Shown piece by piece: positions 11,906 to 60,570 of a stretch of 64,000 bases of DNA. A program made the translations under genes and the position numbers. The notes below the pieces were generated by a model. The model saw only the letters and a program-made list of their open reading frames with translations. It was not told the origin of the DNA and did no database searches. Position 1 is the first letter of the stretch; every line of letters starts with the position of its first letter. The DNA comes from Eledone cirrhosa. Its lineage: Eukaryota. The DNA lies in assembly GCA_964016885.1 (NCBI GenBank), contig OZ024741.1, forward strand, positions 156,488,001 to 156,552,000, written 5' to 3'.

Positions 11906-11944
<39 letters not shown>
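10862..11944. repeat. Compound trinucleotide array [(AGT)n(AGC)m ATC ATA ACT]x
   Basis: Directly visible. More than 20 higher-order blocks, each closed by ATCATAACT. Confidence 0.97.
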
Positions 11945-26150: not shown

Positions 26151-26219
26151 CCGAAATTCACTCTATGCTGCTTTCTTCTTTCTTTTTATACCTAAAAAGG
26201 GTGATTACAGTAGAATCGA

Positions 26220-34435: not shown

Positions 34436-34564
34436 CCAAACAATACAAGATTACTCTTATAATTATTATCATTTCTACATTTGGCACAAGGCCAGCGATT
34501 TGAAGGAGATGGGAAAGTCGATTAGATTGACCCCCCCCCCCCCCAGTTCTTCACTAGTACTTGA

Positions 34565-34612
<48 letters not shown>

Positions 34613-34890
34613 TTTCATTTATTAGCCACAAGGGCCGACATGTAGGGGACAATACAAAGACAGGGACAGTGGAGGTTTACAATAAGGTCGAGTAAAAGTG
34701 CACAATGGCAAGACTAATTTAACAATGTAGATATAAAAATTGTAAAATAAACTATGCATAAATATAACAAAATAAATTCCCCGATAGGGGGTGGACGACC
34801 CTGGGGTAACTCAGGTACCCCACCAATCCTGAACCACCCTGCGCTTCTAGGGCACCCAGGGAGAGCACCCCTCTCCTCAAGTTAGCTAGC

Positions 34891-37800
34891 CTATAGGCGC
34901 ATGGTCAGAGTAGGCCCATTCACACGAGCCATTCTCGCCACATTCACCCACCTTTTAGCAAAAGTACAGGGTGGCAGCACTTCTCTCTCCACCCTCACCC
35001 TCCTTTCCAGGTGAAACTTGAAGAAGTTGATGAATTGGACGAAAAGAAAAGTGTCTGTCTTTAGTCCTTTCAACCTGGTCCACCATATAATCTCTTTCGC
35101 AACTGCCACAAGACAGAGGAAAATTCCATGCTCTTCCTGACCTAAGGAAGGCGGCGGGTCGATCTTCACAATGGACTCGGCCGATAGCCGGGTTCATTCC
35201 ACACGCGACAGTAGCTGTTTGGCATAACTCCACAAGTCAGTAATGCACGGACATTGTACAAGGGCGTGCAGAATGGTTTCGTCAATCTGTGCGCATCTTG
35301 GGCAGGTCCGTCTGACAGCACTTCCGTGCCTGTAGAGTTTATCCCGAACCGGCAGTGCCCCCCGGTAGCACTGCCAAGCGAGGGATTTCTGGAAATTGTC
35401 CATCGTCCCCGGCTCGAAAGTCCTCCGTTACAGACAGGTCAGTTCGACTTCGTCGAGGCCCAAAGCTTCTCCGAGTGCCTCATCGCACATTCCCACCACT
35501 AATCCTCTAAAGAACTCGAGAGTGGAAGTTCCACTGATCGCATTGCTCACGTGGTAGAGGACAGTGAGTGCCTGGCAACATTCCAGGTGCCAGTCACCCA
35601 GTCTTGGTCTCTTCTTGACCCAGGACTGCAGCTCAGTCAAAGAAACGAGCTGCGGAAAGGCCCGTCTGATAAACGGCGACCACACCTGTTCACGGTTTAG
35701 GCAGAATATCTGGAGATGTCACAGCCTCAACGCATGTCTGCGCATCATTAGCCACGGCAGGCCCAGCCCTCCGCGTAGAGGGTGCTGGCAGCAGATAGAC
35801 TGCCTCACCAACGGAACTTGTCCCCTCCACAAGAATTTGAAGAGGAGCCGTTCGAACTTGACGAGGCGCCGACGAGGGCAAGGCACGACGGTCAGACAGT
35901 AGTAGATGACGGACTCGATGTACGCATTCGCCACCTCCGCGCGACCTTTCAGTGATAGCTTCCTCCCAGCTTATTTTTGGGTGAGACTGGCTACTCTGCT
36001 CGTTACCTCGTCCCAATTCTTTTCCACCTAGAGGTCTGGTCCGACCCAAACCCCGAGCAACTTTACCGGTCCGTCCGTCCAGCGCCCCACGACGCTGTTA
36101 GACGGCATGGGCTTGCCTCTCCAGGTTCCGAGCTGCAAGCCCACCGACTTTTGCGGGTTAAGCTTGGCTCCTGTCAACCTTTCATATTCCTTCAGTAAGG
36201 TGCCGACCACCTCAATTTCTGAGGTGTTCGACACCATCACGGTGATGTCGCCCGCATAAGCCGACACCGCCTTTCCACGTCCCGGTTCGAGCGGGATGCC
36301 CTGCAACAGCTCCAGCTTCCGTAGTAAAGGCTCGAGTATCAATACGTACAGAAGGGAGGAGAGAGGGCCGAAGCCAGCTGCTTTGAGGACAAACTCCAGA
36401 TACCGATGGTCGACCCTATCGAATGCTTTCGATTGATCTAAATTGATCAGTGCTCCACCGAAGCCAGGTTTACACCCTACCCTCTCTATGATGTATCGCA
36501 TGAGGTGGAGATTGTCGTATATGGACTTGGCTGGGATTGCGCAAGTTTGCGCCTCCCCAACTAAATCCTCGACGACAAGCGCCAATCTCTTTGCTAACAC
36601 CTTGGCCAAAATCTTAAACTCTGTGTTGAGCAGAGTTATGGGCCTGAAGTTGTCTAATGTATCCCTCTTGTTCTCGTCTTTCCTTATCAGCGTCACCACT
36701 CCCCTGCTCACAGAACTGGGAATACTCCCATTCTGCTGCCAGTTGCAGTAGAGTGCTTCGAGGAGATTGGAGAACAAGTCTGGCATATTTACGTAAAGTT
36801 CGTAGGGCAGACCATCCAAACTGGGTGACTTGCGCCTCATGCAGCCGACAAGGGCATCCTGAATCTCGGCTGAAGTAATTGGCCTTTCGCAGCGCCCAGC
36901 GTCAGCCGTCGAGAGTTGCGGCAAGCCATCGAGTTAGGGACTGAAGTCCGCCACCATCTCTGACCCGCCACTTCCCCCAAAATGTTGGCGAAAGGCCTCA
37001 CACATCCTCTTGGAATCAATCAGCTCGTGCCCGTCTCGGTTCGTCAAAGACCGAATCGTGGTTTTATTTCCACGCTGCGCCTCTGCCACGCGGGCCCATC
37101 GAACAGCTTTGGTTCCCTTGGTTCTCAGAGTACGCGCCTTAGCTCTGACAATGCAACATTCGTGTTTCGCATTGAAGAAATGGTCTAATGCCATTCTCGC
37201 CGCTAGCACATCAGTTGCAATGCCACTACCAATAGCCGCGTCTAACTTATCTACCAACTCGCCCTCCTTTCTATTTTTCTCTAATGCTACTTCTTTGCTA
37301 AACTCTATCGACATAACTCTAATCTTTTGAGAGCCCCACACGATCTATTGTTGATGACTCCCCCTGTCAACTTTTGCTTAACTAAATTGTTGACCGGTCC
37401 CTCTAAGCCTTACGTTCCGGAAATGACATGTTTAGCTTCCAGCAACCAGGTCCTAACCTACGCGTCTTATCTAGGTCGATCATACAGATCACAAACTTGT
37501 GATCTGAATAGGCGACCGTTTCAAAACATGGACAGCTTACACTATTTCTGTCTATTTTCCTAATGAATATCCTGTCTATATACGATCTAGATGACGCTAT
37601 GCGGTTAGCCCAGGTCCACACTGGCGCATTAGGGAAATCTAGTCGGTACCTGTCAGACAGTTGGAACTGGCTGATCAGGTTCTTGAGGCTTTTGCACCCT
37701 CCGCTCCTATCGGATACTCCCACACAGTCCCAGCGTGCGTCTAAGATGCCGTTCCAGTCCCCCGCTAACAGTAAAGGGCGAGACGTACCCAGAAAGGCTT

Positions 37801-38172
37801 CCAGGCGTCTAAAGAAGTCCGGCCATCCTGCCCCAGTAGGAGCATAGATGGCCACCAGTCTAAAGGCACCACCTTCATTATTGTTCACGTCCAGGAGCAC
37901 CAACTTCCCGTCCGGGTGCCGGAAGATCGACCTTACCTCGAGATCCAGGCCTTTCCTAAACAGCACTTCCACCCCACCTCCCATTCCCTATCGGATGCAA
38001 AGATCTGATAGTCGTCGAAAATGGGGGCTAGTGCGCGCGTGTCGGAAATCCTGGTCTCGCTGACTGCAATTACATCCATTTCTATAGACCTGACGTCTTT
38101 TAGCAGGTGACCCTGCTTCCAGGACGATCCCAGGCCTCGAACATCTAAACATCCTAGTCTTAATACGGCCAT
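34891..38172 (-). pseudogene. Copy A ORF2: APE + RT + C-terminal CCHC; stops, frameshifts and an internal deletion
   Basis: MAVLRLGCLDVRGL, AGDWNG, SYIDRIF, YSDHK, KSPSLDGLPYE, NFRPITLLNTEFKILAK, LDQSKAFDRV, AYAGD, CPRC..ETILHALVQC. Confidence 0.93.
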
Positions 38173-38203
38173 GTTGGCAGGTTAAACAGAGAGAGGGGAA
38201 GGT

Positions 38204-40213
38204 TTACTTACCTTCCGGGCTCTTGTGAAGGTCGGGTTGTTCGACCTCCATAGTTAGTGGGGTTTCTTTTGGGAACCCCTTTAAAAGACTTGAAGTGGGT
38301 TTTACGTTCGGGGTTCCCACGTCCCGAGGAAAGCTGTCTCGTATTTCTTTGAATATGTCGAGCGACATTCGCACCAGAACCAAATCTTCTGGCACGCGAA
38401 ATGTGCTCGATTTAAAAATTCCCCCTTCTTTTTGTATATTTTCACTTCGTGCTACGAGGGCCATCAGTTCCTTGTTGGCCCTCCTGACGAGCACAAAGTT
38501 TTGTATGTTTTGTTGGTGTGATCTTATTTGTTTGCATGGCTGTGGTGGTGATGGTTTTGGTGGTGTTGTTTAGGTTGTATCTGTGTTTGTTGTGAGTGTG
38601 GTGTCTGAGGTTTCAGACGTTTGTGTGTATATTTGTTCTTGCGTCTGTTTCGGTTGTTTGCGTTTGGGGGATTCTGGTGATGGTGATGATGGTGTTGATG
38701 TTGGTGTGATTGGAGAGATGTTTCCGTGGGTGGTGTCTGCGTTTTTTATTGTGGGTGCTTTTGTGCTTTGTTGAGTTTTTTTTTTTTTCTTTTTGTGTTT
38801 CCTTTTTTGTATTTTGGGGGATTTGGGATTTCCCTCATTTTCATTACTGGTAGATGAGGGGGTCTGTGTCTGTAAGTGTGTCTGTATGTATGTTTAGGGT
38901 TTTATTGGTGTATGTATTTTTTTTTTGGGGGGGGGGAATTTGACAGCTTTCCTCGTTTCCCTCCTGGGTGGTCAATGTTGGTGGTGGTCTTTCTATTGGT
39001 GTTGCTGTTGGTGGTTTTGCCGGTGCTGGTGTTGGTTGTGGTCCTCGCCCCGGCGTCGGCAGCAGTGGAGCCTTTCGACCCCTTGCCTCTTTCAGCAGTT
39101 GAGGGCAGAAGGCTCGCAAATGGGTTTTTTCCCCACAAACAAAACACTGCGGCCTTTTGCCTCCTGTCATAATGTGAATGACCGTCCCATTCTGAAGGCG
39201 GATGTAGTCTGGGATTGTCTTCACATTCTCGGGCCTGATCTGGAGAAGGATCTCCAGGTCAACCCCGGACCAGTCCTCTCTGGTCGTTCTAGTCACTTCT
39301 ATAGGGACTGTATCCGTCCGCTCCACTATCACACATCCCAGAAGCCACCACATGTCAAGTCCTGGTGGTATTCTGGGAATGCGGAGACGGGCCGCTCTTT
39401 TTCCCATGTGGAGGGGTACATTATGACCTTGCTGGATTTGCAAGGAGTCATAGCGTGTTTCATAGCGAGGGCTTCTGACTTGAACAACACCGAAATGGTG
39501 CCGTACTGTCTGCCCCTCTCTATGTACTGAGTGTCTTCTCTGATGCACCTCAGCGCGACTTCGACATCTTCTTGTGGGATTAAAGCTGCCCTTTTGGTTT
39601 GTGCTGAGATGCATCTATAATGCACCGTTTTGCGCTCCACTGCCTCAATAGCTTCTACCGGGACAGTTAAGTTGGCCCAAGTTTGCTCTTGCTTGATGAG
39701 CTTCCATACCTGGGCCAACTTTTCATCTTTGTTTGAGAGGTCCATGTTGAAGCATGGCCTCTTTTTTTGCTGCTGCAGCGAAAGTGTTCTTGTTTTCGTT
39801 GGGGGTGTTGTTGACGTTGTTCTTGTTGGTGTTGTTGTTAGCACTGTCGCTGTTATCATTGTTGTCTTTGTTGCCACCGTTGTTCTCGGTGCAGTTGGTA
39901 TTGTTGCTGTTGGTGTTTTCGCTATTTGTTTTCATGTTAGTGGTGTTGATATTGTTGTTGTATTTGTTATTTTCTTTTTGTTTTCTGTATTTTCGTTGTC
40001 GCTATTACTGTCATTTTTTTCAAAATTAGAGTTCTTATTGGTATCACTGGTGTCTTTGTTTACCTTGTTTGTGGTGGTGTTTGTGTTATCAATGTGTGAT
40101 AATTTCGCTGTAGCGCTCCTCTCAACTTCTAAGTCGTTGTCGCACGACAGCCGACATATCGCTGGGGGGCGTGGCTCAGCCATGTTTTTTTTTCTTCCTA
40201 AATTTTTTAACAT
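38204..40213 (-). pseudogene. Copy A ORF1: Thr/Asn-rich N-terminus, central domain, CCHC zinc knuckle; frameshifted
   Basis: ORF pieces 39932-40213, 39329-39877, 38844-39614 (CFVCGEKTHLRAFC) and 38204-38494. Confidence 0.88.
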
Positions 40214-40405
40214 GTAAAAAAAAGTTCAAATATTTGGACCAATAGGCCCAAATATTATACTTTCCCCTTCACGGGGAAAGTCTAAGGGCTTATATCCCTT
40301 ACACAACAAGAAATATTTAACAACAAATAATTTAAACAGCAAATAAAGCGACTTACTGTGAGCCAGCAAAATACGTCCGCTTAGACCAATAATAATAATA
40401 ATAAT

Positions 40406-43400
40406 GCTTTCTTTATTAACCACAAGAGTTTACATAAAGTAGACATTAAGGACAGTACAGGACAATCCAGGACTGTACAAATGGGTTTTTCTGCGTGTAA
40501 AAAGCAAAAACAGAGGATGTAACAAAAAATAACAATGGAAAATTCCCCAATAGGGGGGAGACTTCGGAGGGACATTTGTGGAGAAAGCCCATTAAAAAGT
40601 CACAGAGACCCTGATCACCAGGGCAAGTGCCCTCTCCCAGTTTTCAACCTTTAATTTACAGACACATACGCAGAGTAGGCCCATTCACTCGAGCCATACT
40701 TGCTTCTCTCACCCATCTTTCAACAAAATGCTGGGAAGAGAGCACTTCCCTCTCTACTCTGATTTTCCTTTTAAAATAAAATTTTAAAAAGTTAATCAGG
40801 GCATTACCGAAGAGGTAAGTGCTCGTCTTCAGCCCTTTCAAACGTGTCCACCATACTATCTCTTTCGCCATGGCCACCAGACAGATAAAATCTGCCTGCC
40901 CTTCCCGGCTAAAGGAAGAGGGCGGGGCAATCCTCACGATGGACTCAGCTGATAGCTGGATCCGTCCTACACGTGACAGCAGGTGTTCGACATAAACCCA
41001 TAAGTCAGCAATGCTCGGACACTGGACGAGTGCGTACAGGACGGTTTCGTCACCCTGCGCACATCTCGGACATGCCCGTCTGACGGCACCTCCATGCCTG
41101 TAGAGTTTATCCCGAACTGGCAAAGCTCCTCGGTAGCACTGCCAGGCCAGGGATTTCTGGAAGTTGTCCATAGGCCCCGGCCCGAAAGTTCTTCCGAAGA
41201 GATTGGCTACTTGATTTTCGTCGACGCCTAGAGTTTCTCCAAGTACGTCGTAGCTCTTACCCTTCACTAATCCTATATAGAACGCCAAGGTGGAGTTTCC
41301 ACAGATCACATTGCCCGATTGTGAGCGCCTGATGACATTCCAGTCTCCAGCGCTCCCTCTCGGTCTTCGCTTGACCCAGGACTGCAGGTCCGTCATGGAG
41401 ACGAGCTGGGGAAAGACGTGTCTAGCAAACGGCGACCACACCTGATCACCGTTGAGGAAGAGGTAGAGATGTCGTAGCCTGAGCGCGTGTCTGCACATCG
41501 TCAGCCACGGCTTGCCCAGCCCTCCACGTAGCGGGTGTTGACAGCAGGTGGACCGCCTGACCATCGGAGCGCGTCCCTTCCACAAAAAGCGAAAGAGCAA
41601 ACGTTCCAGCGCAGTCAGGCGGGGCTTAGGACAAGGTACGACGGTCAGGCGGTAGTAGATGACGGACGCGATGAACGCGTTAGCCACCTCCGCTCGACCT
41701 TTCAGGGATAGCCACCCTGCTCGTCACCTCGTGCCAGCTTTTGTCCGTCTGGAGGTCCGGACCGAACCAGACCCCTAACAATTTAACCGGTCCGTCCGTC
41801 CAGCGCCCGACGACGCTCTTGGACAGCATGGACCTGCCTCTCCAGGTTCCGAGCTGCAGGCCCACTGACATTTCCTGGTTGATCATTGCTCCTGTCACCG
41901 CTTTGTATTCTCTTAGTATAGTGCCGATCGCCTCGATGTATTTGGCGTTCCGTGACATCGTCCGCATATGCTGACACGAATCTTCCGCATCCTAGCTCGC
42001 GCGGAACTCCCCTCAAAGTCTCCAGTTTGTGCAGTAATGGCTCGAGAGACAATACGTACAAGAGGGACGAGAGAGGACATCCTTGGCGGACCGAGCGCAT
42101 GATGTTGAACGGTTCTGAAAGGTGACCGTTCACTCTCACCACAGAGCAGATGTCGCTGTGCATGGCAGCGATCCAGCCTCTGAAGACGGGCCCAAAGCCA
42201 GCCGCCTTCAGGACTGCCGCTAGGTAACGATGGTCGAGCCTATCGAAAGCTTTCGACTGATCCAAATTGATCAAGGACCCACCCGTGCCATGTTCCCTAG
42301 CTACCCTCTCTACGATGTATCGCACTCGGGCCCATTGAACGGCTTTTGTCCCCTCGTGTCTGAGAGCACGCACCATAGCTCTGACAACGCAGCCTTCGTG
42401 CTTTGCATTGAAGAATTGGTCAAGGGCCAATTTCGCCCCAAGTACGTCGGTCGCGATGCCTTTGCTAAGCGCCTCGTCTAAATTTCTAACTAGTTCTCCC
42501 TCTGCTCTATTTTTCTCTATTTTTCTCTTACTAAACCTAATGGACTCTATTCTAATCGCTCTTTTCAGAGCAAACCACCACTTGTTGACGATGGCCCCGG
42601 TCAACGCCCGCTTTAACTAGTTCGCTACTCCGTTCTCTGTAGGCCTTGCACGCTGGTAAGGACGCGTTTAGCTTCCAGTAGCCGGGTCCTCGTCTATGAA
42701 GCCTATCTAAGTCAAGCACACAGATCACGAATTTGTGGTCCGTGTAGCTGACTATCTTGAATTGTGGACAGCCTATGCTAGACCTATCTATTTCCCTACA
42801 AAATACTCTATCTAGATATGATCTGGATGACCCGATACGGTTTGTCCAAGTCCACATTGGCACATTCGGGAAATCCTATCGGTACCTGTCAGACAGTTAA
42901 AAACGCCTGAGCAGATTGGTGAGGCTCTTGCACCCTTCTCCCCTATCCGCTAATCCCACACAGTCCTAGCGTGCATCTACGATCCCGTTCCAGTCGCCCA
43001 CTAACACTAAAAAGCGGGACATTCCAAGAAGGGTCTCCAGACGCCGGAAGAAATCAGGCCGCCCTGCTCCTGTCAGGGCATAGACGGCCACTAGCCTGAA
43101 AGCTTGCCCGTCTCCGCTTGCCACGTCCAGCACCACCAACTTACCTTCTGGGTCCAGGAAGATGGCCCGTATGGCGAGATCCAAACCTCTCCGAAAAAGC
43201 ACAGCAACACCTCCCACCGATCCCGGACGGCTGGGAGATGCGTACACATCGTAGCCGCCGAAGATCGGTGCGAAGGTCCGTACTTCGGAAATTCTGGTCT
43301 CGCTGATGGCCAGTACATCTATGTTTAGTGACCTGAGATCGTTGAGCAGGTGGCCCTGCTTCCATGACGACCCCAAACCACGCGCATTTATGCTGCCTAT

Positions 43401-45407
43401 TCTGAGTGAAGTCATGTTGAAATGGAGTGGAAAAGATGGGAAAGACCACTTACCTTACTTCTCGTAGGGGAAGGATTGTTTCTCCATCCTTTTCACTGCT
43501 TGTGGCCTCCTCTGGAAGGATGTGCTTATAAATCCTCCTGGAGAGTGCTTGTCGGAAGTCTCCGATATCTTTGGGGAATTTTTGTTTTAGTGTCATGTAC
43601 GTTTTCTGTGTGATGCGAGTGATTTGTATGTGTGGAGGTGGTGTGAACTTTTGGGTTGTTGTGTAGTCTTTTTCTGTGATGCTGGTGTTGTGTTGGATGT
43701 AGTGTAATAATTGGTTGTTGTTCAAATTTAATGCTGTGTAGTGTGTATCGTTTTGGTTGTTTTGTTTTGTTTGCGTTTGTTGTGGGTTTGTTTCTGTTTC
43801 GCTTTATGGTGACTTTTGTGGTGCTGGTGATGGTGGTATTGGGGTTAATGATGGTGTTGGTGTTTGTGTTGATGGGGTTGGTGATGCTGGTGTGGATGGT
43901 GGCATATCTGTCTTAACTTTTTTGAATGATAGTTTATTTGTTTCCCTCTGTATTTTGTTTTTGGAGGGGGAAGGAAGGGGATTTGTTCTTTTTTGGTTTC
44001 TTTTTCTTTTTTCCTTTTTTCCTGATACCGTTTCCCACTCCTCGTCGTGACAATCTGTCTCCAGTTGCGATAGGTCGGGGAGTGGAAAGACCTCCACAGG
44101 CGTTGGTTTTGGTTGTGGTGTGGTGGATGGTGTAGGCGCTGGTGCTAGTTCTGGCGCGTTGGGTGGTGGTGGTGTTGGTTTTGCCCTCGACGATTACGGG
44201 AGGTGGCTGCCGTCAGTGAGGTCTATTACCTCTGGGATGTCCTCAATGCTTTTTTGGTCCGCTTGGATCATGAGCTCCATCCCAGATCCGGACCAGTTCT
44301 CCTGCTTTTCTTTCGCTATTTAGATTATCTTGGTGTTGGCTTCGATGCCGGCGAGGACAGCAGCCATTATCCAGGGAATTTCGATGGCGGGTGGAACGTG
44401 GGTCACCCTGATCTTCACGAGTCTCTGGCCACAATATCTTGGGACGAGTGTGAAGTCGTCACTTCTTAATGGGGCCATGGAGTGTTCTCTGGCCTCCTGT
44501 CGTGTTTCAAAGAACACGTCCACGGTTCCATATTTCTGCCCACGTCTGATGTGGGTTTTTTGCCCGCACATGACCCAAAGCTTTTTGGATTTGGGACTCG
44601 GATGCCCGTTCCAATCGGCGCGATTTTATGTTAATCGTCCGATAAGACACGGTGCATAGGCGCCGATGCTCCATGTTATTAGGTGTGTGTGTGGGGGGGA
44701 GGGGCTGACCCTGGATCTATCTTTCTTTACCATTTTTTGGCTTCTTCTAATTCCTCCTGAGTTACCTGAAATGCTTCGCACTTTTTTGCTACTCTGGCAA
44801 AAGACAGGGTTTTCTTATTCTCTTTGTTGCTGTTGTTGTTATCGTTATTTTTGTTATTGTTAACTTTAATTTCAGTTGTGGTGGTGGCGTCAGTGGTGTT
44901 CGGTGTGGAAGAGTTAATTTTGGCTGAATTCGTTTCGATATCACGAGATAATTTATTTTTTTTATTTTGTTTCTGTTGTCGCTGTGCTGGTGGTGGGCAC
45001 GGTGGCTTCAACACCTGCAGTCCTTGGTAATGGCGGGAAATGAATGTCTGTCTGAGACAAATTTAAAATATTGCTACTGCTTATATTTTTAGTGTTGGCA
45101 AACGTAGTAATATTTACAATGGTGGTGTCGGTGTGAGGTGTTAGTTTGTGAGGAAGGCTCTCAGCTACTGGGTTCAGCTGTGAGTCGGCCATGATTTTTC
45201 AAAGAAATTTTTTTTGTTTGATAATTATAAAAGTTTAAATTTTGGGCTCAAGGCCCCAATCTTTTTGAGTGTCATTTTCAGAAAACAATGTTTGTGCACT
45301 TATATACAGTTAATAATAAAAATTTTCCATAAATGGCAATTTTAAACAACTGAAAACAACAAATCTTTGCGGAGCTCACGATGATACGATTTACTACGTA
45401 GGTCGCC
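40406..45407 (-). mobile_element. Full-length Tx1-group LINE copy B (different subfamily, RT internally deleted)
   Basis: 5' end ATT|GGCGACCTACG; ORF1 45192-43450 (broken); ORF2 43415-40656 with MTSLRIGSINARGL, VRQGCPLS and AYADD; 3' end GTGGTTAATAAAGAAAGC(ATT)6 abutting copy A. Confidence 0.95.
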
Positions 45408-45451
<44 letters not shown>

Positions 45452-45457
45452 GGAAAG

Positions 45458-46130
45458 GGACGCACGTGGTGGATAGTGTGTTATGGAATCGCTCCCGTAA
45501 GTTTTTGATTTTTAACATATTTAAAACAATTGTGATATAACAATTCCTAGTACAAATGGGACATAAAGCGCCAGGCTTAACTCTCATTAATTTCGGATCA
45601 ATAATATCCTGTTATATCGCTCACATATTCAATTTTGTATTATAAATTTTATATTTAAAAAAGAAAGTGGTCATATATGGAAGAAAACCCCTCTGTCTAC
45701 ACTATATAGAACAGCCAAATAACAGCAATTTCACCAACACCACAAACTAGATACACCACCTATCCCATCACCCCTCTGTATACACTAAATACAACAGCCA
45801 GATAACGTCAATTTCACCACCACCAATCCCAGCATAATAATAATAATTAGTATTATTGTATCTCAAGTTTTCTCAAAATGTTTAATTCAAATATTAAGGG
45901 AATATGTCAACACATATATTAAACATACGCAACAAACCGCATAGATACACAGATCAAACAAACTACAGTCTATTAAACAAATCTCAGTAACGACAACGCC
46001 ATCACTATAGTCACCGCCGCCACCACTCCATCATTGCTACCACTATCCCATCACCGCCGCCACCACTCCTTCATTGCTACCACCACTATTACCCCACTAC
46101 CTTCTGTTAACTTAAGAAAGGGGAAGTTGG
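45458..46130 (+). mobile_element. Possible 5' remnant (UTR + Thr-rich ORF1 start) of another Tx1-group element
   Basis: Starts GGACGCAC like the 5' end of copy C, has similar UTR composition, then ACC/AAC-rich sequence. Confidence 0.35.
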
Positions 46131-46332
46131 CGGTATCACTAGACAAGGGAGAGACTAGCAAAAGATATAAATAGACTGACTTAGTGACTCGGTCAAACGT
46201 CTACGACTATGGTACTGCTGAGTCCCCCATTCCCCACCAACAATAGAAAAAGCTCCAGCACCACCACCACCGACATAGCCAACAACAATAACAGGCAACT
46301 TCAGCAAAAAGTATATTATATTGTTAATAATA

Positions 46333-49300: not shown

Positions 49301-50376
49301 TTGAAACACGACACCATCAAAAGATCATACTCCATTACAAAAGATGCACAAATATACAGTAATGGACTACAAATTTCAGAAGTCCCATTTACTGCTGAAA
49401 TGGAAAACACAGAAAAAGCAAAGCAGGTAAAAGTAACTGCAAAAAAAGAACTGCTTCAGAAACTGGCTAAGAAATGGCAAGAAAAGCCTCTGTATGGAAA
49501 ATACCCAGAGCGAGCTAACAATACTGATGTTGACAAAACTTTAACCCATCAGTGGATAGCATCCTCTGGACTGGAATCGGAGACTGAAGGACTGATTATA
49601 TCAGTACAAGATCAGTGTCTGCCAACAAAAAATTACCAAGCCAACATAATAAAAAATGGATGCAACCCATTATGCTGTGTATGCAAAAAAACAACCAGAG
49701 ACCATTGATCATATAATTTCAATGTGCAGTCCAACCGAATACCTAAACAGGCATGACAGAGCTGCACAATACATACATTGGATAATGTGTAAGCATTTTG
49801 ACCTGCCCCATCAAAAGAATTGGTGGGAGTATCAACCACCTCCCATACTTGAAAAAGATCACATCTCAATCTTGTGGAACTTTAGCATCCAAACAGACCG
49901 AAAAATAGATGCAAATAGACCTGATATAATACTGAAAAGAGGGTATGCCTGCTAAGTGATATGTCCGTTCCAATAGACACGAATGTATCTATAAAAACAT
50001 TTGAAAAATTGAGCAAGTATAAGGACCTGGAGATAGAAATTGGAAAAATGTGGAAATTGAGAACTAAAACAATACCAGTGGTTGTAGGCGCTCTAGGAAT
50101 GATACCTAGGGGGTCTAATGATTACTTATCGCAAATCCCAGGAAACCCGCGTATAGGAGAAATACAAAAGATAGCACTAATGGGAACTGCCCATATACTA
50201 AGGAAGATTCTGTCAATATAAGTACTTCACAAGTCTAAACACCTAAAGATGCATGTGTTTGTATGTATGTTCTTTCTTGAACATGGCGGACCTTGTTGTC
50301 TCTTGAGGTCACTGGTTGTGACTTGGTGATAACTCGTATGAACATACAGCAAGATAAATGCAACTATAATAATAAT
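46333..50376 (+). mobile_element. Near full-length R4/Dong-type RLE LINE (copy D)
   Basis: Begins after TAATAATAAT, single broken ORF 46576-50221, ends CAACTA(TAA)n. Confidence 0.92.
46576..50221 (+). pseudogene. Copy D polyprotein: N-terminal domain + RT + CCHC + PD-(D/E)xK endonuclease; about six frameshifts
   Basis: [67 protein letters not shown]-like TRGL, CCVC..ETIDHIISMC, RHD, RPDII, DMSVP, KLSKY, VVGALG. Confidence 0.93.
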
Positions 50377-50377
50377 A

Positions 50378-52190
50378 AAAGCTTGAGTCCTTACTGAATG
50401 GGACATTACATAACATAGACACTAAAGATAAATTGGAAATAAATGACAAAACTGGGGGGGGGGGCTAAATATTATCAGAGAGAAACTGAAGCAACGCATT
50501 GTAGCAAAAAGTGCAAAGATTAGATGGTATGAGAACAGAGTCACTCAGTATAGACAGAACCAGTATAGACACTCAGTTTGACAACAGCCAGAAGATGTCG
50601 TTTGGACAGCTTGAAGGGAAAGAAAGAGGCAACGACGTGATCCCTGAGGCGGAACAGACTAAGACATTCTGGAGAGGAATATGGGAGAAGGATGTTGAAC
50701 ATAATGGTCAGGCAGTGTGGATTGGGACAATTCAAAAGGAGACTAGTAAACAGGCACACCAACAACCTGATTTGAGTATCACAGTTGAAATTGCTAAAGG
50801 GCAGGCCAAAAAACTAATCAACTGGAAATCACCAGGCCCAGATGGTGTGCAGGGGTATTGGATTAAAAATATAACATCCCTCCACCCGAAACTGACAACC
50901 ATGTTCAATGACTGCTTGATGTCGGGTGAGGTACCAGAGTGGTTGACAAATGGTGCCACAGTTCTGGTAATGAATGACCGAATCAAGGGTAAGGATGTTA
51001 CCAACTATAGGCCTATCACATGTTGGTCCGTAATGTGGAAACTGTTAACAAGCATTGTGTCTGAGGAAATCTTCCATCACCTCCACATAAACAACTTGCT
51101 ACCGGACCGTCAGAAAGGATGCCGAAAGAAGTCCCGTGGTACAAAAGACCAGTTACTTACTGATAAGATGGTAATGAGGAATTGCAAGAGGAGGCATACT
51201 AGTCTTGTCATGGGATGGATAGATTACAAAAAAACTTTCGCCATGGTACCGCTTTCTTGGATAACCAAAAGCCTAGAGATCTTCAAGGTGGCAGATAACA
51301 TTAGACAGTTGTTGAGCAAAAGTATGAAGCCCTGGGAAACAGAGTTAACATCGGGTGGAGAATCCTTGGGAGGTGTGAAGATCAAGAGAGGTATCTTCCA
51401 TGGAGAGAGTTTGTCCCCTCTGCTGTTTGTCCTTGCCCTGATACCCCTGACCGTTATATTGCGAAAAGTGACAGCAGGATACAAGTTGGGAAAAGGAGAG
51501 CTTACCATCAACCACCTCCTCATCATGGACGATCTTAAACTCTTTGGGAAGAGAGAGAAGGTGTTGGATGTACTTGTTGACACTGTCCGTATTTTCAGCA
51601 ATGATATATGTATGGAATTTTGTATTAATAAGTGTGGAGTCCTAGTGATGAAGAGGGGTAAATTAAGCAGAAGCAACGGATTCCAGGTACCAACAGGTGA
51701 GATGATACAGGAATGAGGAGGGATACAAATATTTAGGTGTTCTGGAGGCAGATGACATCAAGAACAAAAAAATGCAGGAATTGATAAGATCAGAGTACAT
51801 AAGGAGAGTAAGTGTAGATGTAGCCTGCCCATTTGACATGAGAGTGCAAGAAAAGGAGTGGGGGAAAATTAACCGATACCAGGACATAAAGTGGCAGTTA
51901 AAAAGGATTTGGAACTGCCATGAAGTCAGAGTCGTCCCGATTGTCATAGGCGCACTAGGTACTATCTCAAATAGTTTCCAAGGATGCTTAAAGAAAATTA
52001 GTCCAGCCCCGCTTTTTGGAACACTTCAAAAGGCATGCTTGCTGGGAACAGCAAAAACCCTCCGATACTTCCTGAATATCTGAGGGTGCATGTAGCGGCT
52101 TGATATTCATTTCAACAAACTTTCCAGTTAAATAACATCAATGACTGAGATTCAAAGAATAATAATAATAATAATAATAATTATAATAAT
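50378..52190 (+). mobile_element. Second R4/Dong-type LINE (copy E), 5'-truncated and internally deleted
   Basis: 401-aa ORF 50511-51716 (WKSPGPDGVQGYW, NYRPITC, WIDYKK, GIFHGESLSPLLF, IMDDLKL). Jumps at ~51810 to the RLE region (VDVACPFD..VPIVIGALG). (TAA)n tail at 52158-52190. Confidence 0.92.
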
Positions 52191-52191
52191 A

Positions 52192-52583
52192 ATTGTTTCT
52201 ACTTTTGGCACAAGGCCAGCAATTATCACAGTACTTTACTGGTACTTTATTTAATCGACCCCGTAAGGATGAAAGGCAAAGTTAACCTCGGCGAGATTTG
52301 AATTCAGATCGTAAAGGGACGTAACTATGCTGGAAAGCATGTCCGACCCTCTACCGATACTGCCAATTCACCGCCCTTATAATAATTATAATAATAATTG
52401 TTTCTATTTTAGGCACAAGGCCAGCAATAACCAGTACATTACTGGTACTTTATTTTATCGACCCCGTAAGGATGAAAGGCAAAGTTAACCTCAGCGGGAT
52501 TTGAACTCAGAATGGAAAGGGCCGTAACTCTATGCGTCAAAGCATGGTGTCCGACTCTCTACCGATACTGCCAATCCACCGCC
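52192..52583 (-). mobile_element. Two tandem SINE family 1 copies
   Basis: Units ~52192-52377 and ~52397-52583, heads GGCGGTG(G/A)ATTGGCAGTATCGG, linked by an (ATT)-like run. Confidence 0.92.
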
Positions 52584-52603
52584 ATTATAATTATAATAAT
52601 AAT

Positions 52604-55600
52604 GATTTCATTTATTAGCCACAAGGGCCGACATGTAGGGGACAATACAAAGACAGGGACAGTGGAGGTTTACAATAAGGTCGAGTAAAAGTGCACAATG
52701 GCAAGACTAATTTAACAATGTAGATATAAAAAATGTAAAATAAACTATGCATAAATATAACAAAATAAATTCCCCGATAGGGGGTGGACGACCCTGGGGT
52801 AACTCAGGTACCCCACCAATCCTGAACCACCTTCTGCTTCTAGGGCACCCAGGGAAAGCACACCTCTCCTCAAGGTTAGCTAGCCTATAGGCGCGTAGTC
52901 AGAGTAGGCCCATTCACATAGGCCATTCTTGCCACATTCATCCATCTTTTAGCAAATGTATTGGGGGGGGGCATCACTTCTCTCTCTCCACCCTCACCTT
53001 CCTTTCCAGGTGAAACTTGAAGAAGTTGATGAGGGACTGGCCGAAGAGAAATGTGTCTGTCTTCAATCCTTTTAATCTGGTCCACCATATAATCTCTTTC
53101 GCAATGGCCACCAGGCAGAGGAAAATTTCCTGCTCTTCCTGACCTAATGAAGACGGCGGGTCGATCTTCACAATGGACTCGGCCGATAGCCGGGTTCATT
53201 CCACACGCGACAGTAGCTGTTCGGCATAACTCCACAAGTCAGGAATGCACGGACATTGTACAAGGGCGTGCAGAATGGTTTCGTCATTCTGTGCGCATCT
53301 TGGGCAGGTCCGTCTGACAGCACTTCCGTGCCTGTAGAGTTTATCCCGAACCGGCAGTGCCCCCCGGTAGCACTGCCAAGCGAGGGATTTCTGGAAATTG
53401 TCCATCGTCCCCGGCTCGAAAGTCCTCCGTTACAGACAGGTCAGTTCGACTTCGTCGAGGCCCAAAGCTTCTCCGAGTGCCTCATCGCACATTCCCACCA
53501 CTAATCCTCTAAAGAACTCGAGAGTGGAAGTTCCACTGATCGCATTGCTCACGTGGTAGAGGACAGTGAGTGCCTGGCAACATTCCAGGTGCCAGTCACC
53601 CAGTCTTGGTCTCTTCTTGACCCAGGACTGCAGCTCAGTCAAAGAAACGAGCTGCGGAAAGGCCCGTCTGATAAACGGCGACCACACCTGTTCACGGTTT
53701 AGGCAGAATATCTGGAGATGTCACAGCCTCAACGCATGTCTGCGCATCATTAGCCACGGCAGGCCCAGCCCTCCGCGTAGAGGGTGCTGGCAGCAGATGG
53801 ACTGCCTCACCAACGGAACTTGTCCCCTCCACAAGAATTTGAAGAGGAGCCGTTCGAACTTGACGAGGCGCCGACGAGGGCAAGGCACGACGGTCAGACA
53901 GTAGTAGATGACGGACTCGATGTACGCATTCGCCACCTCCGCGCGACCTTTCAGTGATAGCTTCCTCCCAGCTTATTTTTGGGTGAGACTGGCTACTCTG
54001 CTCGTTACCTCGTCCCAATTCTTTTCCACCTAGAGGTCTGGTCCGAACCAGACCCCGAGCAACTTTACCGGTCCGTCCGTCCTCGCTGTTGGACGGCATA
54101 GTCTTGCCACTCCAGGTTCCGAGCTGCAACCCAACGACTTTTCCGGCTTAAGTTTGGCTCCTGTCAACCTTTCATATTCCTTCAATAAGGTGCCGACCAT
54201 CTCGATTTCTGAGGTGTCCGACACCATGACGGTGATGTCCTCCGCATAAGCCGACACCGCCTTTCCACGTCCTAGTTCGAGCGGGATGCCCTGCAACAGC
54301 TCCATCTTCCGTAGTAAAGGCTCGAGAATCAATACGTACAGAAGGGAAGAGAGAGGGCACCCTTGACGGACCGAGCGTGTGCCGCTCTGCATTGCATCGA
54401 TCCAGTTTCTGAAGACAGGGCCGAAGCCAGCTGCTTTGAGGACAAACTCCAGATACCGATGGTCGACCCTATCGAATGCTTTCGATTTATCTAAATTGAT
54501 CAGTGCCCCACCGAAGCCAGGTTTACACCCTACAACTTCTATGATGTATCGCATGAGATGGAGATTGTCGTGTATGGACCTGGCTGGGATTGCGCAAGTT
54601 TGCGCGTCTCCAACCAAATTCTCGACGACAAGCGCCAATTTCTTTGCTAACACCTTGGCCAAAATCTTAAACTCTGTGTTGAGCAGAGATATGGGCCTGA
54701 ATTTGCCTAATGTATCCTTCTTGTTCTCGTCTTTCCTAATCAGCGTCACCACTCCCCGGCTCATAGAACTGGGAATACGCCCATTCTGCTGTCAGTTGCA
54801 GTAGAGTGCTTCGAGGAGATCAGAGAACAAGTCTAGCATATTTGCGTAAAGCTCGTAGGGCAGGCCATCCAAACCGGTGAACTTGCGCCTCATGCAGCGG
54901 ACAAGGGCGTCCTAAATTTTGGCTGAAGTAATCGCCTTTCGCAACGCTCAGAGTCGACCGTCGAGATGCGCAACAAGCCGTCAAGGTAGGGACTGAAATC
55001 CGCTACTCTCCTGACTCGCCACTCTCCCTGAACAACCGAGCAAAGTGCTGGTGAAAGGTCTCACACATCCGCTTGGAATCGCTTATCTCGTGTCCGTCTC
55101 GGTCCGCAAAAGACCAAATTGTGGTTTTATTACCACGCTGCGCCACCGCCACGTGGTCCCATCTTACAGCTTTAGTTCCCACGTTTCTCAGCGCACGCGC
55201 CTTAGCTCTGACAATGCAACCTTCGAGTTTCGCATTGAAGAAATTGTCTAATGCCATTCTCGCCGATAGCACGTCAGTTGCGATCCCACTACAAATAGCC
55301 TCGTCTAACTTATCTACTAGCCTCCCTCCCTTTCTATTTTTCTCTAACGCTAGTTCTTTGCTGAAATCTATCGAACTTACTCTGATCTCTCTTTTGAGAG
55401 CCCCCCACCATCTGTTGTTGATGATCCCCCTGTCAACGTTTCCTTAACTAAATTGTTGACTCGGCCCCTGTAAGCCTTACGTGCCGGAAATGACATGTTC
55501 AGCTTCCAGTAACCCGGTCCCAACCTATACGTTTTATCTAGGTCGACCATACAGATCACAAATTTGTGATCTGAATAGGCGACCGCTTTAAAAACTGGGC

Positions 55601-58389
55601 AGCCTACACCATTTCTATCTATTTTCCTAATGAAGATCCTGTCTATATACGATCTAGATGACCCCATGCGGTTGGTCCATGTCCATATTGTCGCATTGGG
55701 GAAATCTAGTCGATACCTGTCAGACAGTTGGAACTGGCATATTAGGTGCTTGAGGCTTTTGCCCCCGCCGCTCCTATTGGATACTCCCACACAATTCCAG
55801 CGTGCGTCTAAGATGCCGTTCCAGTCCCTGCTAACAGTAAAGGGCGAGACGTATCCAGAAAGGTCTCCAGGCGCCTAAAGAAGTCCGGTCGTCCGGCCCT
55901 TGTAGGGGCGTAGACGGCCAGCAGTCTAAAGGCACCACCTTCGCTACTGCTCACATCCAAGACCACCAACTTACGTCCGGGTCCCGGAAGATCAACCTTA
56001 CCTCGAGATCCAGTCCTTTCCTAAACAGCACTACCACCCCACCTCCCATTCCCGGCCTGCTAACAGATGCGAAGATCTGATAGTCGTCGAAAATGGGGGC
56101 TAGTGCGTGCGTGTCGGAAATTCCTGTCTCGCTGACGGCAAACACATCCATTTCCAGCGACCTGAGGTCGTTGAGCAGGCGACCCTGCTTCCAGGGTGAC
56201 CCCAGGCCGCGAACATTTAAACTTCCTACTCTTAATATGGCCATGTTGGCAAGCTAAAAGTGAGTGGGAAGGTTTCCTTACCTCCCGGGGTCTTGTGAAG
56301 GTCGGGTAGTTCGACCTCCATGGTTGGTGGGGTTTCTTTGAGGAACCCCTTTAAAAGTCTCGATGTGGGTTTCACATTCGGGGTTCCCACGTCTTGATGA
56401 AAGCTCTCCCGAATTTCTTTGAAGGAATCGAGTGACATTCGGACCAGAAGCAAATCTTCTGGCACGCAAAATGTGCTCATTTCAAAGATCTCCCCTTCTG
56501 TTCGAATGTCCTCGCTTCGTGCTAAGAAGGCCATCAGTTTATCGTTGGCCCTTCTGACAAGCACGGAGTTTTTAACATTGTGCTGGTGTGGTTTTATTTG
56601 TTTTCGTTTTGGTGACTGTGGTGGTGATGGTTTTGGTGGTGTTGTTTCGGGTATGTCTGTGTTTGTTGTATGGGATTGTGGGGTCGGTGTCGATATTAAT
56701 GTTGGTGCTGATGTTATTGGGGAAATGTTTACGTTAGTGGTGTCTGTATTTCTTCTTGCGTATGATTTTGTGTTTTGTTGGGGCTTTTTTGTGAGTTTTC
56801 TCTGTTTTATTTGCACTTTTTGGTTTTCCTTCATCTTCCGTGCTGGAAGACAAAGGGTCTGTGGCTGTGAGTGTCTCTGTGTCTGTGTGTGCGTTTATTG
56901 TTTTGTCTATGTGTATAATTGGAGGGGTAGGAGGAGTGGGAGAGCTTACCTCGTTTTCCCGTTGGATTGGTTTCGGTGTTGGTGGTGGGCGGGCTGTTTT
57001 TGATGTTGGTGTCCCTGTCTTTGTTGGTGTTGTTTTTGGTGGTGGTTGCTGACACTGGCGTTGGCAACAAAAGAGGTTTGCGACCCCCTGCATTTTTGCG
57101 CTACGGGGGCAGAAGTATTGCAGATGCGTTGCTTCCCTGCAGACGAAGCAGTGCGGGCTTCTTCCCTCAGTGATTAGTTGGATTGTTGTCCTGTCCTGCA
57201 GGCGGGCAAAATCCGGGATGTTGTTCATGTCCTCCGGTTTCATTTGGAGAAGAATCTCCAAATCCATTCCGGACCAGTCTTCTCTCTTTGTCCTTTTGAT
57301 GTCCAGGAGGGTAGTGTCTGTCCCTTCCTCGATTACGCATCCTAGGAGCCACCATATGTTCATTCCTGGTGGGATCCTGGGAATGCGGACCATTATTGTC
57401 CCTTTTCCCATGTAGGACGGGTGCATGATAATGCGTTCCGTTCTGCAGGGGGCCACCGAGTGCTTAATAGCAAGGGCCTCGGTTTTGAACAGTACCGAGA
57501 TGGTACCGAACTGTTTGCCTATTGCTTTATACTCTATGTCACTTCCGATGCACTCCAAAGCAGCCTCGACCTCTGCTTGGCTGGCAAGTTCCACTTTGTG
57601 TGTCTGCACTGAAATGCATCGAAAGTACACCGTCCTCCTTTGCATGGCCGCTATTGCCCCGTCCGGGATGGTCAGGTTTGGCCAGGACTTCTCCCGTTTA
57701 ATTAACCTCCATGCCTGGGCCAAATGTTCGTCTTTATCGCTAATATCAATATTCAATAAGCGCTTTGTTTTTTTCTGCTGCAGCAAAGGTGGTGCCTCTG
57801 TTGCTCTTGTTGTTGCTGTTGTCGTTCTTGTTGTTGTTGTTGGTGTTGTTGTTATTTGGTTTGTTGTTGCTGTTGCCATCCGTATTTACATTGAAGCTGT
57901 CGGTGTTATTGTCGTCGGTGTTCTGAGCTGTTCTTGTAGTGGTGGTGGTGGTAGTGGTGATGTCGTTTTGAGATGATACTGCTACTAACACAGAAGAGAG
58001 CGGCTGTAATGGTAGCTGTTGTGTTTTGCCTTCACATTCAGTGGAATGGTCGACAGACATGTCTGTAGTAGTCGTAGTTGTGGTGAGATCTACAGTGGCT
58101 GCTTTTGAACTTTTGACCTGAACGTTTTTTACCGTTTCAAGGTCGAAAATTTCCATGTTTTTTTTTTATTGGGGAGGGAAAATTTATTTTTCGAAGTTCT
58201 TAAAGATAAATCTGAATATTCGGGCTTAAAGCCCAAATATTGAAAGGTCTCCCATCCTTGGAACTAAGGTGGGTACTTTATGTTTCGTTAACGACAAGAA
58301 AATACAAAAAATGATACTTTAAAACAGCTTAAAATTACGAACCTTCCCCCCCCCCCCGCAGGCTTGTACGTCTTCATACATGTGCGTCC
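52604..58389 (-). mobile_element. Full-length Tx1-group LINE copy C (disrupted), inserted in a SINE array
   Basis: 5' end ATT|GGACGCAC; ORF1 58156 to ~56275 (CFVCREATHLQYFC); ORF2 56244-52885 (MAILRVGSLNVRGL, KFRPISLLNTEFKILAK, VRQGCPLS, AYAED); 3' end identical to copy A. Confidence 0.95.
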
Positions 58390-58586
58390 AATAATAATAA
58401 TTGTTTCTACTTTTGGCACAAGGCCAGTAATTATCCCAGTACATTACTGGTACTTTATTTTATCGACCCCGTAAGGATGAAAGGCAAAGTTAACCTCAGT
58501 GGGATTTGAACTCAGACCGTAAAGAGGCATAACTATGCTACAAAGCATGGCGTCCGACTCTACGGATACTGCCAATCCACCGTCCG
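58390..58586 (-). mobile_element. SINE family 1 whose (ATT)n tail leads directly into Tx1 copy C
   Basis: Minus strand GGTGGATTGGCAGTATC..GAGTTCAAATCCC..GGCCTTGTGCCAAAAGTAGAAACAATTATTATTATT|GGACGCAC. Confidence 0.92.
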
Positions 58587-60194
58587 ATAATAATAATAAT
58601 GAATATCGGTTTTATTATACAAATGGGAGAAACAAAACTTAATATATGGGTAATGTGGTGTATATTGTATTATAACTGTGATTCGAATTTGAAAATGCAT
58701 TTAACCACAACATTTCTGGCCCTCGAGTTACTCGTGTAGCTTCTCAGCTATGACAAAATTTTCAACAACATATATAACTAGATTGTCTTTATTGGAGAAA
58801 ACTTTCCCAGAATGGAAATAATCGATAACGTTTTGTGAATCAATGTGTGTATTGTATTGCCTGCAGAAGGTTGTGGTTGTTATCACTATTATTAAGACAT
58901 CAAAAGTTCATTTTATATAATGATGTTTAGGAATACCAAACTGTATAGAATGGAATGAGCTTTCGTCGGTGTCAATGATGAGTGCTCTAAATGTTCGAGC
59001 ATCGGAACAGCTTTAGCATGAATTAACGTGTAAGTGTCTAAGCATTCCACAGACACATGAATCATTCAAGGGAGATTCAGCGTGATTATGGGAGTGTGAC
59101 TTAGGTGGATCCTTGAATTACAGGTTCAGTTTATACGACGGGCTTCCAAACAGTTTCTGTCTACCTAATTTCATTACAAAACTTGGATTAATTCGAGGCT
59201 ATGGTAAATTACATTTGTCTCAGATTCCACTGAGTGTGATCGACACTGGAAACTAAAAGTGGAATGAAACAAAGGGAAATAAAATATCTTGCTCAAGGGC
59301 AGAATGCGATACCGGAAGTCGAACTGTCGACCTTACGATCGAGAGGTGAACACCCTAACTCATAAGACAGATGCTTTAGAATCAGAATTGTATTTACATG
59401 GGTGTGTATAGAAAAATACCGATTTGTATTATTCTTGGCAGAGAGAGAGGGGGAGTGCAATGAAGCATTTCTCGCCAGTGTGTTTAGTTACACAATAGTT
59501 AAATCGAACAGATTACCATACAATGAAAGAACATTTTAGCAGATAATGGATTTTCTCATCTTGTTTGCTGAAATGCTAAAAACGTGGGTGACTGGGTTGG
59601 TGTGTTGGTGTAGGACAATTTCATTTCAATTTAGTAGGCAAGTTAATTCACCAGTTGGTCATTGTTGTATCTATGCTTAGCCCAAGGGTTGAACCCACTT
59701 TTAACAGAGAATATTTCACAGATAGAATATTTAAGTGCTTTGATTAAAGCAAGAGGATCAGAGGAAATCAATAATGATCTGTGTCGAAGGGAGTTCAACA
59801 CATTATTAAGACACCAACCCTCAAACCGAAAACAACCCCTCTATCCAGCCCTCCATTCACTAAACTCTCCAGCCAACCCACTTATTCAGGTAATCATAAC
59901 AAAATCAACAATGGCCCGTGCCGGAAAATAGTACACACAAAGAGTTCCAATTTGTGTATTTTTAGACAACATGTTTATATAAGGGGTGATAGAAAGCACA
60001 TAATTGTGGCTGACTGTGGTTAAGTTGTTCGGCTCGTAATTGTGAGATTGTAAGTTTTATTCACGGCTCTCGCGACGTGGTGTGGCACTTGTGAAAGATA
60101 TTTTATTTTACAACATGCTCCAGTTCATTCAGCTGGTAAAAATGATTTGTACCTGTAACTCAAAGGATCAACCTTGTTATACATTGTGTAATTA

Positions 60195-60570
60195 CTGATG
60201 CTTTATTTTATCGACCCCGTAAGGATGAAAGACAAAGCTAATCTCGACGGGATTTGAAATCAGAACGTAAAGGGCCGTAACTATATGCCGTAAAGCATGT
60301 TGTCCGACGCTCTACCAATACTGCCTATACACCACCCTTAAAAATAATTGTTTCTACTTTAGGCACAAGGCCAGCAATTTTGGGGGAGGGAAAAGTTGAT
60401 TAAATCGACTCCAGTGCGTGACTGGTACTTTATTTTATCGACCCCGTAAGGATGACAGGCAAAGCTAACCTAGGCGGGATTTGAACTCTGAATGTAAAGG
60501 GCCATAACTCTATGCCGCAAAGCATGTTTTCCGATGTTTTATAAGTACTGCCAAACCACCACCCTATACT
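60195..60570 (-). mobile_element. Two tandem SINE family 1 copies
   Basis: Bodies TTTTATCGACCCCGTAAGGATGA at ~60205 and ~60433 (plus-strand view). Confidence 0.88.

Follow-up and report, generated by a model that had tools for sequence, protein, structure and literature searches.

How do retroelements of several kinds come to lie end to end over some 24 kb, each joined to the next by a short run of ATT? This question is raised by a stretch of 64,000 nucleotides (nt) from the genome of the octopod Eledone cirrhosa (GenBank assembly GCA_964016885.1, contig OZ024741.1, positions 156,488,001 to 156,552,000 of the forward strand), hereafter the window, in which positions 34568..58600 form, read on the minus strand, a chain of long interspersed nuclear elements (LINEs), short interspersed nuclear elements (SINEs) and Dong-type elements, all joined through ATT-type linkers. 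The answer that we consider probable, judging from sequence comparison, is that related LINE families of the L1 group (Tx1-like) target (ATT)n microsatellites, that the SINE and the Dong-type elements share these arrays, and that serial insertion built the chain in the window. These arrays were present before the elements, lie on either side of them and in many cases are formed by the ends of older elements.

Read on the minus strand, the chain begins at the right with (ATT)4, a SINE, (ATT)4, LINE C, a linker, a SINE, a linker, a SINE and a linker; then come two plus-strand Dong-type elements, (ATT)14, LINE B, (ATT)6, LINE A and (ATT)14. A first-pass annotation of the window had described this chain, and its order, strands and coordinates were correct on re-reading, as were the heads of all three LINEs at ATT|GG (58389, 45407 and 40387) and two caveats, namely that a fragment near 20755/20765 has an AAT-reading tail and that the 30308 fragment has no tail. 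Other statements had to be adjusted. The chain extends as described but also continues leftwards (33423-34560), first into a SINE that is truncated and then into part of an older LINE. The three linkers around the two inner SINEs are imperfect, each starting with (ATT)3-ATA. No element interrupts the body of another inside the window, but elsewhere SINEs lie inside the first open reading frame (ORF1) of family B at 3/20 loci. The three LINE copies were called full-length, and each does span from 5' to 3' end, although all are broken, with no ORF longer than 383 amino acids. The parts of the chain, from right to left, are as follows.

58587..58600, minus strand: (ATT)4 array with which the chain starts on the right
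58402..58585, minus strand: SINE copy 1, about 185 nt
58390..58401, minus strand: (ATT)4 linker from the SINE tail to the head of LINE C, ATT|GG
52604..58389, minus strand: Tx1-like LINE, family C; ORF1 and ORF2 (endonuclease and reverse transcriptase) broken
52584..52603, minus strand: imperfect ATT linker starting (ATT)3-ATA, probably the 5' target duplication of SINE 2
52399..52583, minus strand: SINE copy 2
52377..52398, minus strand: imperfect ATT linker starting (ATT)3-ATA
52194..52376, minus strand: SINE copy 3
52158..52193, minus strand: (ATT)3-ATA-(ATT)8 array from the tail of SINE 3 to the 3' end of Dong-type element 2
50378..52157, plus strand: Dong/R4-type element 2, 5'-truncated, with an internal deletion and a reverse transcriptase domain
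50366..50377, plus strand: (AAT)4 linker joining both Dong-type elements
45452..50365, plus strand: Dong/R4-type element 1, full span but broken; reverse transcriptase, then CCHC and restriction-like endonuclease motifs (by eye)
45408..45451, minus strand: (ATT)14 array common to LINE B and Dong-type element 1, which lie head to head
40406..45407, minus strand: Tx1-like LINE, family B, with two internal deletions
40388..40405, minus strand: (ATT)6 linker from the tail of LINE B to the head of LINE A
34611..40387, minus strand: Tx1-like LINE, family A in its 5' part; most of the final 1.5 kb matches LINE C at 99-100% identity
34569..34610, minus strand: (ATT)14 tail array of LINE A
33423..34560, minus strand: leftward extension, a truncated SINE-like piece followed by the 3' fragment of an older Tx1-like element (65-70% to A and C)

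The (ATT)3-ATA marker recurs in three linkers in a row, as would be expected if two SINEs had entered one array serially. In 60 evenly spaced 10-kb samples of the genome (600 kb), a random position follows a perfect (ATT)3 at a frequency of only 1.6e-4, so the ATT|GG starts of the LINEs are not chance.

The genome of the animal itself (3.0 Gb) was searched with the 5' end of each window LINE, the queries carrying no ATT flank (534, 2248 and 2005 candidates per 5'-end query; 40 scored and 30 fetched for each, with the window copy at the head of every list). At least three perfect ATT units stood at the 5' junctions of 52/58 other copies of families A and B, at least three ATT lay within the last 15 nt in 58/58, and ATT|GG was read in 55/58. 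For the older family C, 7/29 copies had at least three perfect units and 22/29 passed the relaxed test of three ATT in the last 15 nt, for which the background in the same genome samples is 0.36%. Copies of family A differ from the column majority by a median of 1.1% and those of family B by 2.5%. The 5' arrays range from 0 to 27 units, and the phase at ATT|G is near-perfect in all families. The GG itself was considered as part of the target and rejected, since two further families, F and E, start with GA. Moreover, among 5'-truncated LINE copies whose junction lies inside the locus (copies with internal deletions being left out), 13/18 junctions are ATT-flanked, 1/18 has a long duplication starting in ATT and 4/18 have neither, all by eye. 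The targeting of (ATT)n by the LINEs with fixed strand and phase, as proposed from the window, is thus supported genome-wide by the 5' junctions.

That the array is there before the element was seen at a family A copy which sits in the internal ATT array of a young, unclassified host repeat (copies 96-97% alike). Among 19 paralogues of this repeat, 14 are empty and each bears 4-13 ATT units at the site, which upholds the claim of insertion into pre-existing (ATT)n; in the remaining five that array is occupied, either by a SINE or by a LINE of full or truncated length. This internal array is itself an insertion hot spot, 5/19 paralogues having been hit.

A useful control is another LINE, which we take to be CR1-like from its reverse transcriptase and 3' motifs. 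It ends in 1-7 ATT units, yet 0/26 of its estimated 5' junctions are ATT-rich and it makes almost no target duplication (two weak cases). Therefore a matching tail alone does not give targeting, and the idea that an ATT tail is sufficient was rejected. The CR1-like LINE nevertheless seeds new short ATT arrays, and 6/29 of its tails run directly into a SINE, a Tx1-like LINE or a Dong end.

The first-pass annotation had also proposed that each insertion leaves a fresh (ATT)n tail which is the next target. The upstream neighbour of 87 LINE heads was the 3' end of a LINE in 20, a reversed Dong-type element in 18, the 3' end of a SINE in 13, a CR1-like tail in 2, and nothing recognised or a doubtful match in 34, a few of these labels resting on 58-70% matches. 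Since about 11/28 random ATT arrays of at least four units are element tails (by eye), such tails are used as targets roughly in proportion to their share of arrays, although LINE tails look over-used (20/87 against 2/28, both small numbers). Element ends are indeed reused, but the proposal is not supported in that form: the SINE adds no ATT beyond its duplication, and the linkers of two of the family F arrays described below copy the outer 5' flank. The supposed self-renewal is mostly target duplication and reuse of linkers, although the LINE may plausibly add a new tail. A recurrent upstream sequence, provisionally regarded as a Dong end, was rejected because it is the head of family F.

The SINE is less demanding than the LINEs. 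Target duplications of 8-19 bp were found in 22/29 copies (13/145 in mismatched controls), 19 of them starting with ATTAT, and in 22/22 copies with a duplication no extra ATT stands between the SINE body and the duplication. The companion SINE had been regarded as (ATT)n-specific, but it needs only ATTAT, adds no new repeats and has ATT-rich heads in 3/29 copies, so that it was rejected as microsatellite-specific. At one single-ATT site in family B ORF1 it was inserted three times. SINE and LINE have the same strand and ATT register, but the SINE has no need of long arrays, and the length of the LINE duplication is unreadable inside pure repeats. The SINE tail resembles that of family A (0/1000 shuffles as good; gapped match of about 58 nt), whereas its similarity to the Dong-type or CR1-like tails is not significant. 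The SINE is thus likely a passenger of the Tx1-like LINE machinery, as far as tails and junctions can tell. As to a tRNA-derived origin, like that of octopus OR1/OR2 or of CORE- or Deu-type SINEs, no transfer RNA was found in it by ARAGORN, and there was no relevant Rfam match and no small nuclear RNA (snRNA) match. Tandem SINE clusters also lie outside the chain (window 15954-16686 and 60191-60597).

Dong-type elements read the same repeat on the other strand: 23/29 heads are preceded by (AAT)3 or more and 0/29 by (ATT)3. Their reverse transcriptase is followed by CCHC and restriction-like endonuclease motifs, seen by eye in broken frames, and from the likeness of these to R4 motifs and from the TAA flanks they are presumably R4/Dong elements. 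In a quick tree of reverse transcriptases, built without Dong or R4 reference sequences, they stand on a long branch. The part given to Dong in the chain thus holds, 23/29 heads following AAT arrays, but it is known biology: Dong is reported to target TAA microsatellites in silkworm, mosquito and a snail (PMC3812793, with reference to Kojima and Fujiwara 2004). In several copies the Dong head is preceded by an (AAG)n run, in many cases beside (AAT)n, and these runs are perhaps an expansion of the element's own GAA-rich start.

What are the LINEs? Pfam matches in the window are pieces of reverse transcriptase and apurinic/apyrimidinic-type endonuclease (APE) in the LINEs and reverse transcriptase in the Dong-type elements. 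ORF2, as read in intact copies of family F, has the arrangement of the L1 group, that is, an N-terminal APE, a reverse transcriptase and a C-terminal zinc finger, and a separate upstream ORF1 of 698-715 codons shows a CCHC knuckle by eye, with no significant Pfam match. The closest solved relative of ORF2 is human L1 ORF2p, the best hit in a PDB search (E 2.6e-38, against 2e-20 for R2). By this domain order and by the closer match of the reverse transcriptase to L1 than to R2, the families belong to the L1 group of non-long-terminal-repeat retrotransposons. In the quick tree, which held no Tx1 reference, an Argonauta protein joins A, B, C and F (SH-aLRT 100), and the sister of this set is a group that includes a cuttlefish protein. 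Sequence-specific insertion, a trait of many members of the Tx1 clade, is found in these families, which are candidate members of that clade. Among named proteins, those closest to the LINE protein come from Argonauta (56-71% identity) and a cuttlefish; distant homologues are 42-46% identical, and a metagenome scan found no relative. Relatives at 43-44% identity make up the protein clusters P0009, P0011, P0019 and P0020; each cluster has 350-730 members, and in many of these ORF2 is full-length. Scattered over the window, in both orientations, are further older Tx1-like fragments, 60-83% identical to A, B and C (2-2655, 7768-8626, 20456-22014, 26192-27575 and 30353-31363), and the fragment near 20755/20765 is followed, after its AAT-reading tail, by another truncated copy.

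As for the condition and kinship of the window copies, LINE B lacks about 190 and 600 nt, and LINE A about 105 nt, in comparison with sister copies. Their 5' untranslated regions (UTRs) had been called unrelated but are homologous, 10/10 pairs among five families beating at least 299/300 shuffles. A palindrome shortly before the ORF1 start codon is kept in all five families despite the divergent 5' UTRs (in the window within 40150-40387, 45170-45407 and 58150-58389, minus strand), and it is possibly a promoter or an RNA hairpin. The ORF1 core is only 34-52% identical between families, which suggests replacement of 5' ends as in L1. A and C are 51-71% identical in the first 1.7 kb but 99-100% across most of A's last 1.5 kb, in patchy tracts (34611-36070 and 52604-54050) that include the same stop codons, whereas other family A copies are only about 86% identical to window A there. 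The 3' ends of A and C are not independent because of this identity, and the tracts suggest either that C converted A or that the assembly is wrong here.

Family F, which was found by protein search and shares the ORF2 of family B with a different 5' end starting GA, is the youngest of the families. In most of the top rows (the best 150 of 35227 candidates were scored) it has open frames of 1150-1204 codons, and its intact ORF2 matches Exo_endo_phos, RVT_1 and zf-RVT in Pfam. Twenty loci were picked as apparently single, two of them being duplicates of each other; 19/19 readable heads are preceded by 3-27 perfect ATT units, and 19/20 loci touch another element, 11 of them on both sides. Tails are longer than 5' arrays in 13/19 (medians 14 and 8 units; p = 0.12, a trend only), and dispersed copies share no leader except pure ATT. 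In addition, 40/118 rows have another row less than 40 kb away; the two members are on the same strand in each of the 26 neighbour pairs, and their spacing is in near-integer multiples of 6.08 kb. Three such head-to-tail arrays, in which copies are near-identical and most have a long open ORF2, were read at all junctions.

C1:441086000-441141400: family F array of 9 copies, about 54 kb
C2:188049001-188081200: family F array of 5 copies
C1:234592000-234623616: family F array of 5 copies

In the 9-copy array, 8/8 linkers end in the imperfect sequence of the outer 5' flank (51 nt in six, 36 nt in one and 30 nt in one), and the tail of the last copy differs from the inner linkers. In the C2 array 4/4 linkers are identical and copy the outer 5' flank, with neighbours 100% identical over 2566 nt; in the other 5-copy array 2/4 linkers are pure ATT and the other 2/4 include some 200 nt of the upstream flank. 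Since the linkers of two marked arrays match the outer 5' flank, growth was by copying of the 5' side and the tails were not the growth point. Private variants fail to separate insertion from duplication because 37/44 rows of array heads are identical over 150 nt (one junction counted twice). Whether the marked arrays grew by unequal exchange or by insertion resolved on a resident copy is about even, and a contribution of assembly is possible, given neighbours up to 100% identical. A tentative proposal, to which we give only a modest chance, is that a currently active LINE lineage builds these arrays of 30-55 kb by a new route, priming at an ATT nick upstream of a resident copy, its cDNA pairing with the 5' end of that copy and duplicating 30-200 nt of flank each time. 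If it is true, the lineage would form with the SINE, Dong and the CR1-like seeder a system of four lineages by which a single microsatellite is both made and consumed, and the intact family F endonuclease would be a natural ATT-specific nicking tool.

In target-primed reverse transcription, specificity is mainly set by the endonuclease (PMC4494074, PMC1950540). The LINE endonuclease likely nicks the AAT strand of (ATT)n, the AUU end of the LINE RNA would pair at the nick and prime reverse transcription, and the second cut would fall inside the repeat. Each insertion would duplicate part of the array, one target becoming two, and the linkers could be hit again. The SINE, having a similar 3' tail, would borrow the LINE machinery and accept bare ATTAT; Dong-type elements, which have another type of endonuclease, come into these arrays from the opposite strand; and the untargeted CR1-like LINE supplies new short arrays. 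The mixed chain of the window would thus be a product of serial insertion, followed likely by gene conversion between A and C, and the pure arrays of family F would likely have grown by duplication from the 5' linker.

Several observations weigh against targeting by the LINE enzyme as just outlined. The endonuclease loop, which helps to set specificity, has 9 residues between its anchors in the alignment, which is the L1 length and not the 11 of the extended hairpin loop in Tx1L and TRAS1 (PMC1950540), although the longer loop characterises Tx1L and is not known to be diagnostic of the Tx1 clade. Only 3/29 SINE heads are ATT-rich, and one enzyme must account for both degrees of strictness; with family B the SINE tail agrees weakly (53/1000 shuffles) and with C moderately (8/1000). 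The junction samples are the best-scoring 29-30 of 500-2800 candidates, which favours young, whole copies, and older divergent relatives in random samples mostly have no ATT tail, with one clear array among seven matches near the 3' end. Furthermore, read mapping over window 58330-60150 (four runs of one sample) supports the unique flank and the SINE 5' junction, with records spanning 58573-59036, but no empty allele was seen in these runs, whose sample is possibly the assembly source and whose signal is swamped by SINE copies.

Part of this would be expected if the endonuclease were loosely specific (ATTAT) and the specificity were set by annealing of the RNA's AUU tail and the new cDNA to the repeats. 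The SINE entering single ATT sites, even three times at one, the loop of L1 length, and full-length LINE heads joined exactly in phase while SINE heads are not would all suit such pairing, and annealing-type 5' joining has been described for other LINEs (PMC4245944). However, the CR1-like LINE with the same ATT tail is untargeted (0/26), and most truncated LINE copies (13/18) are flanked by ATT even though they lack a special 5' end; we regard this explanation as unlikely.

The near-perfect ATT|G phase in all families might also mean that the 5' (ATT)n is part of the element itself, carried along by transcripts that start in the upstream repeat, and so is not a target. This is quite improbable, as the paralogous empty sites already have the array (14/19), its length varies from 0 to 27 units, truncated copies are ATT-flanked too, and dispersed F copies have only pure ATT in common; a short carried leader on top of targeting is possible.

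Another possibility is that most chain formation takes place in DNA, the ATT arrays on either side of an element undergoing unequal exchange; as a general account this is very doubtful. It draws on the pure F arrays, where the identical C2 linkers and neighbours, the 8/8 linkers ending like the outer 5' flank (six in the same 51-nt form) and the flank of about 200 nt in 2/4 linkers speak for it, and on the conversion-like tracts between A and C. Against it, plain duplication of one element would not give the 9-copy array a last tail unlike the inner ones. For the pure arrays it stands about even with insertion-based growth, but for the mixed chain of the window it is unlikely, the members being different families, 51-89% alike outside the tracts, and not mutual copies. 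Lastly, random insertion with better survival in microsatellites, described as passive accumulation for Drosophila Waldo (PMC3812793), is scarcely credible in view of the exact phase and strand, the enrichment of several thousand-fold already in near-identical young copies (19/19) and the negative CR1-like control. Insertion targeted to (ATT)n is therefore retained as the preferred account.

Two other repeats lie in the window: a satellite of about 45-nt units (63 copies, 92% matches, 61246-64000) runs off the window end, and a degenerate (TAG)n array of about 1 kb with higher-order units (10877-11944), to which spurious long ORFs there are due, sits in the 3' region of an old Tx1-like fragment (9384-10910).

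How APE-type elements choose microsatellites is not well understood (PMC3812793), and the present families add (ATT)n to their short list of targets. With more than 100 near-identical copies bearing open reading frames, the choice becomes directly testable with a natural intact protein. Library matches to Tx1-like elements cover about 7% of the sampled DNA, to the SINE 2.6% and to Dong 1.3%, so that a large genome is being shaped by this targeting. Element ends account for many of the ATT arrays, which bears on microsatellite markers and on assembly. Octopus papers report L1-Tx1, Dong-R4 and SINEs as abundant and recent, with no mention of targets found in the parts of them available (PMC13282606, PMC8967140).

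Among known systems, the closest are the Tx1-clade families Kibi and Koshi of teleosts and the crocodilian Tx1 families in (TTCC)n/(TTTC)n, which are specific to microsatellites (PMC4494074, PMC3812793). Like these, the Eledone LINEs are APE-type with two ORFs, ORF2 having APE, reverse transcriptase and zf-RVT; unlike them, they use (ATT)n in an octopod host, form long mixed chains, and comprise several families that differ in 5' UTR and ORF1 but share one target. A literature search found no (ATT)n-specific Tx1-like lineage, Repbase and the target list in Fig. 3 of PMC4494074, either of which may list one, being outside that search; (ATT)n thus appears new as a target for this LINE group. A Tx1 family with a companion SINE is already on record: crocodilian SINEU shares its target preference with Tx1 families (Tx1-Mar), usually more weakly than the LINE (PMC4494074). 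Here, too, the SINE shares a preference with the LINE, but it has no snRNA match, and what the two have in common is the short motif ATTAT where in crocodilians it is a DNA transposon. The endonuclease of Dong is restriction-like (RLE), as described for the R4 clade (PMC4640811), and the plus-strand elements of Eledone behave like Dong in inserting after sense-strand AAT/TAA arrays (23/29); the Tx1-like families, in the opposite orientation, reach the same repeat independently. Keno and Utopia both insert in U2 snRNA genes, Utopia sometimes in tandem (PMC4640811). Like that pair, APE-type and RLE-type elements converge here on one target, but the target is a microsatellite entered from opposite strands. 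Mammalian L1 and Alu insert into the A-rich tails of earlier copies, and there as here tail and target share sequence and elements create and reuse their targets; mammalian L1, however, has a weak TTAAAA preference, whereas in Eledone the preference is nearly absolute and for a trinucleotide repeat.

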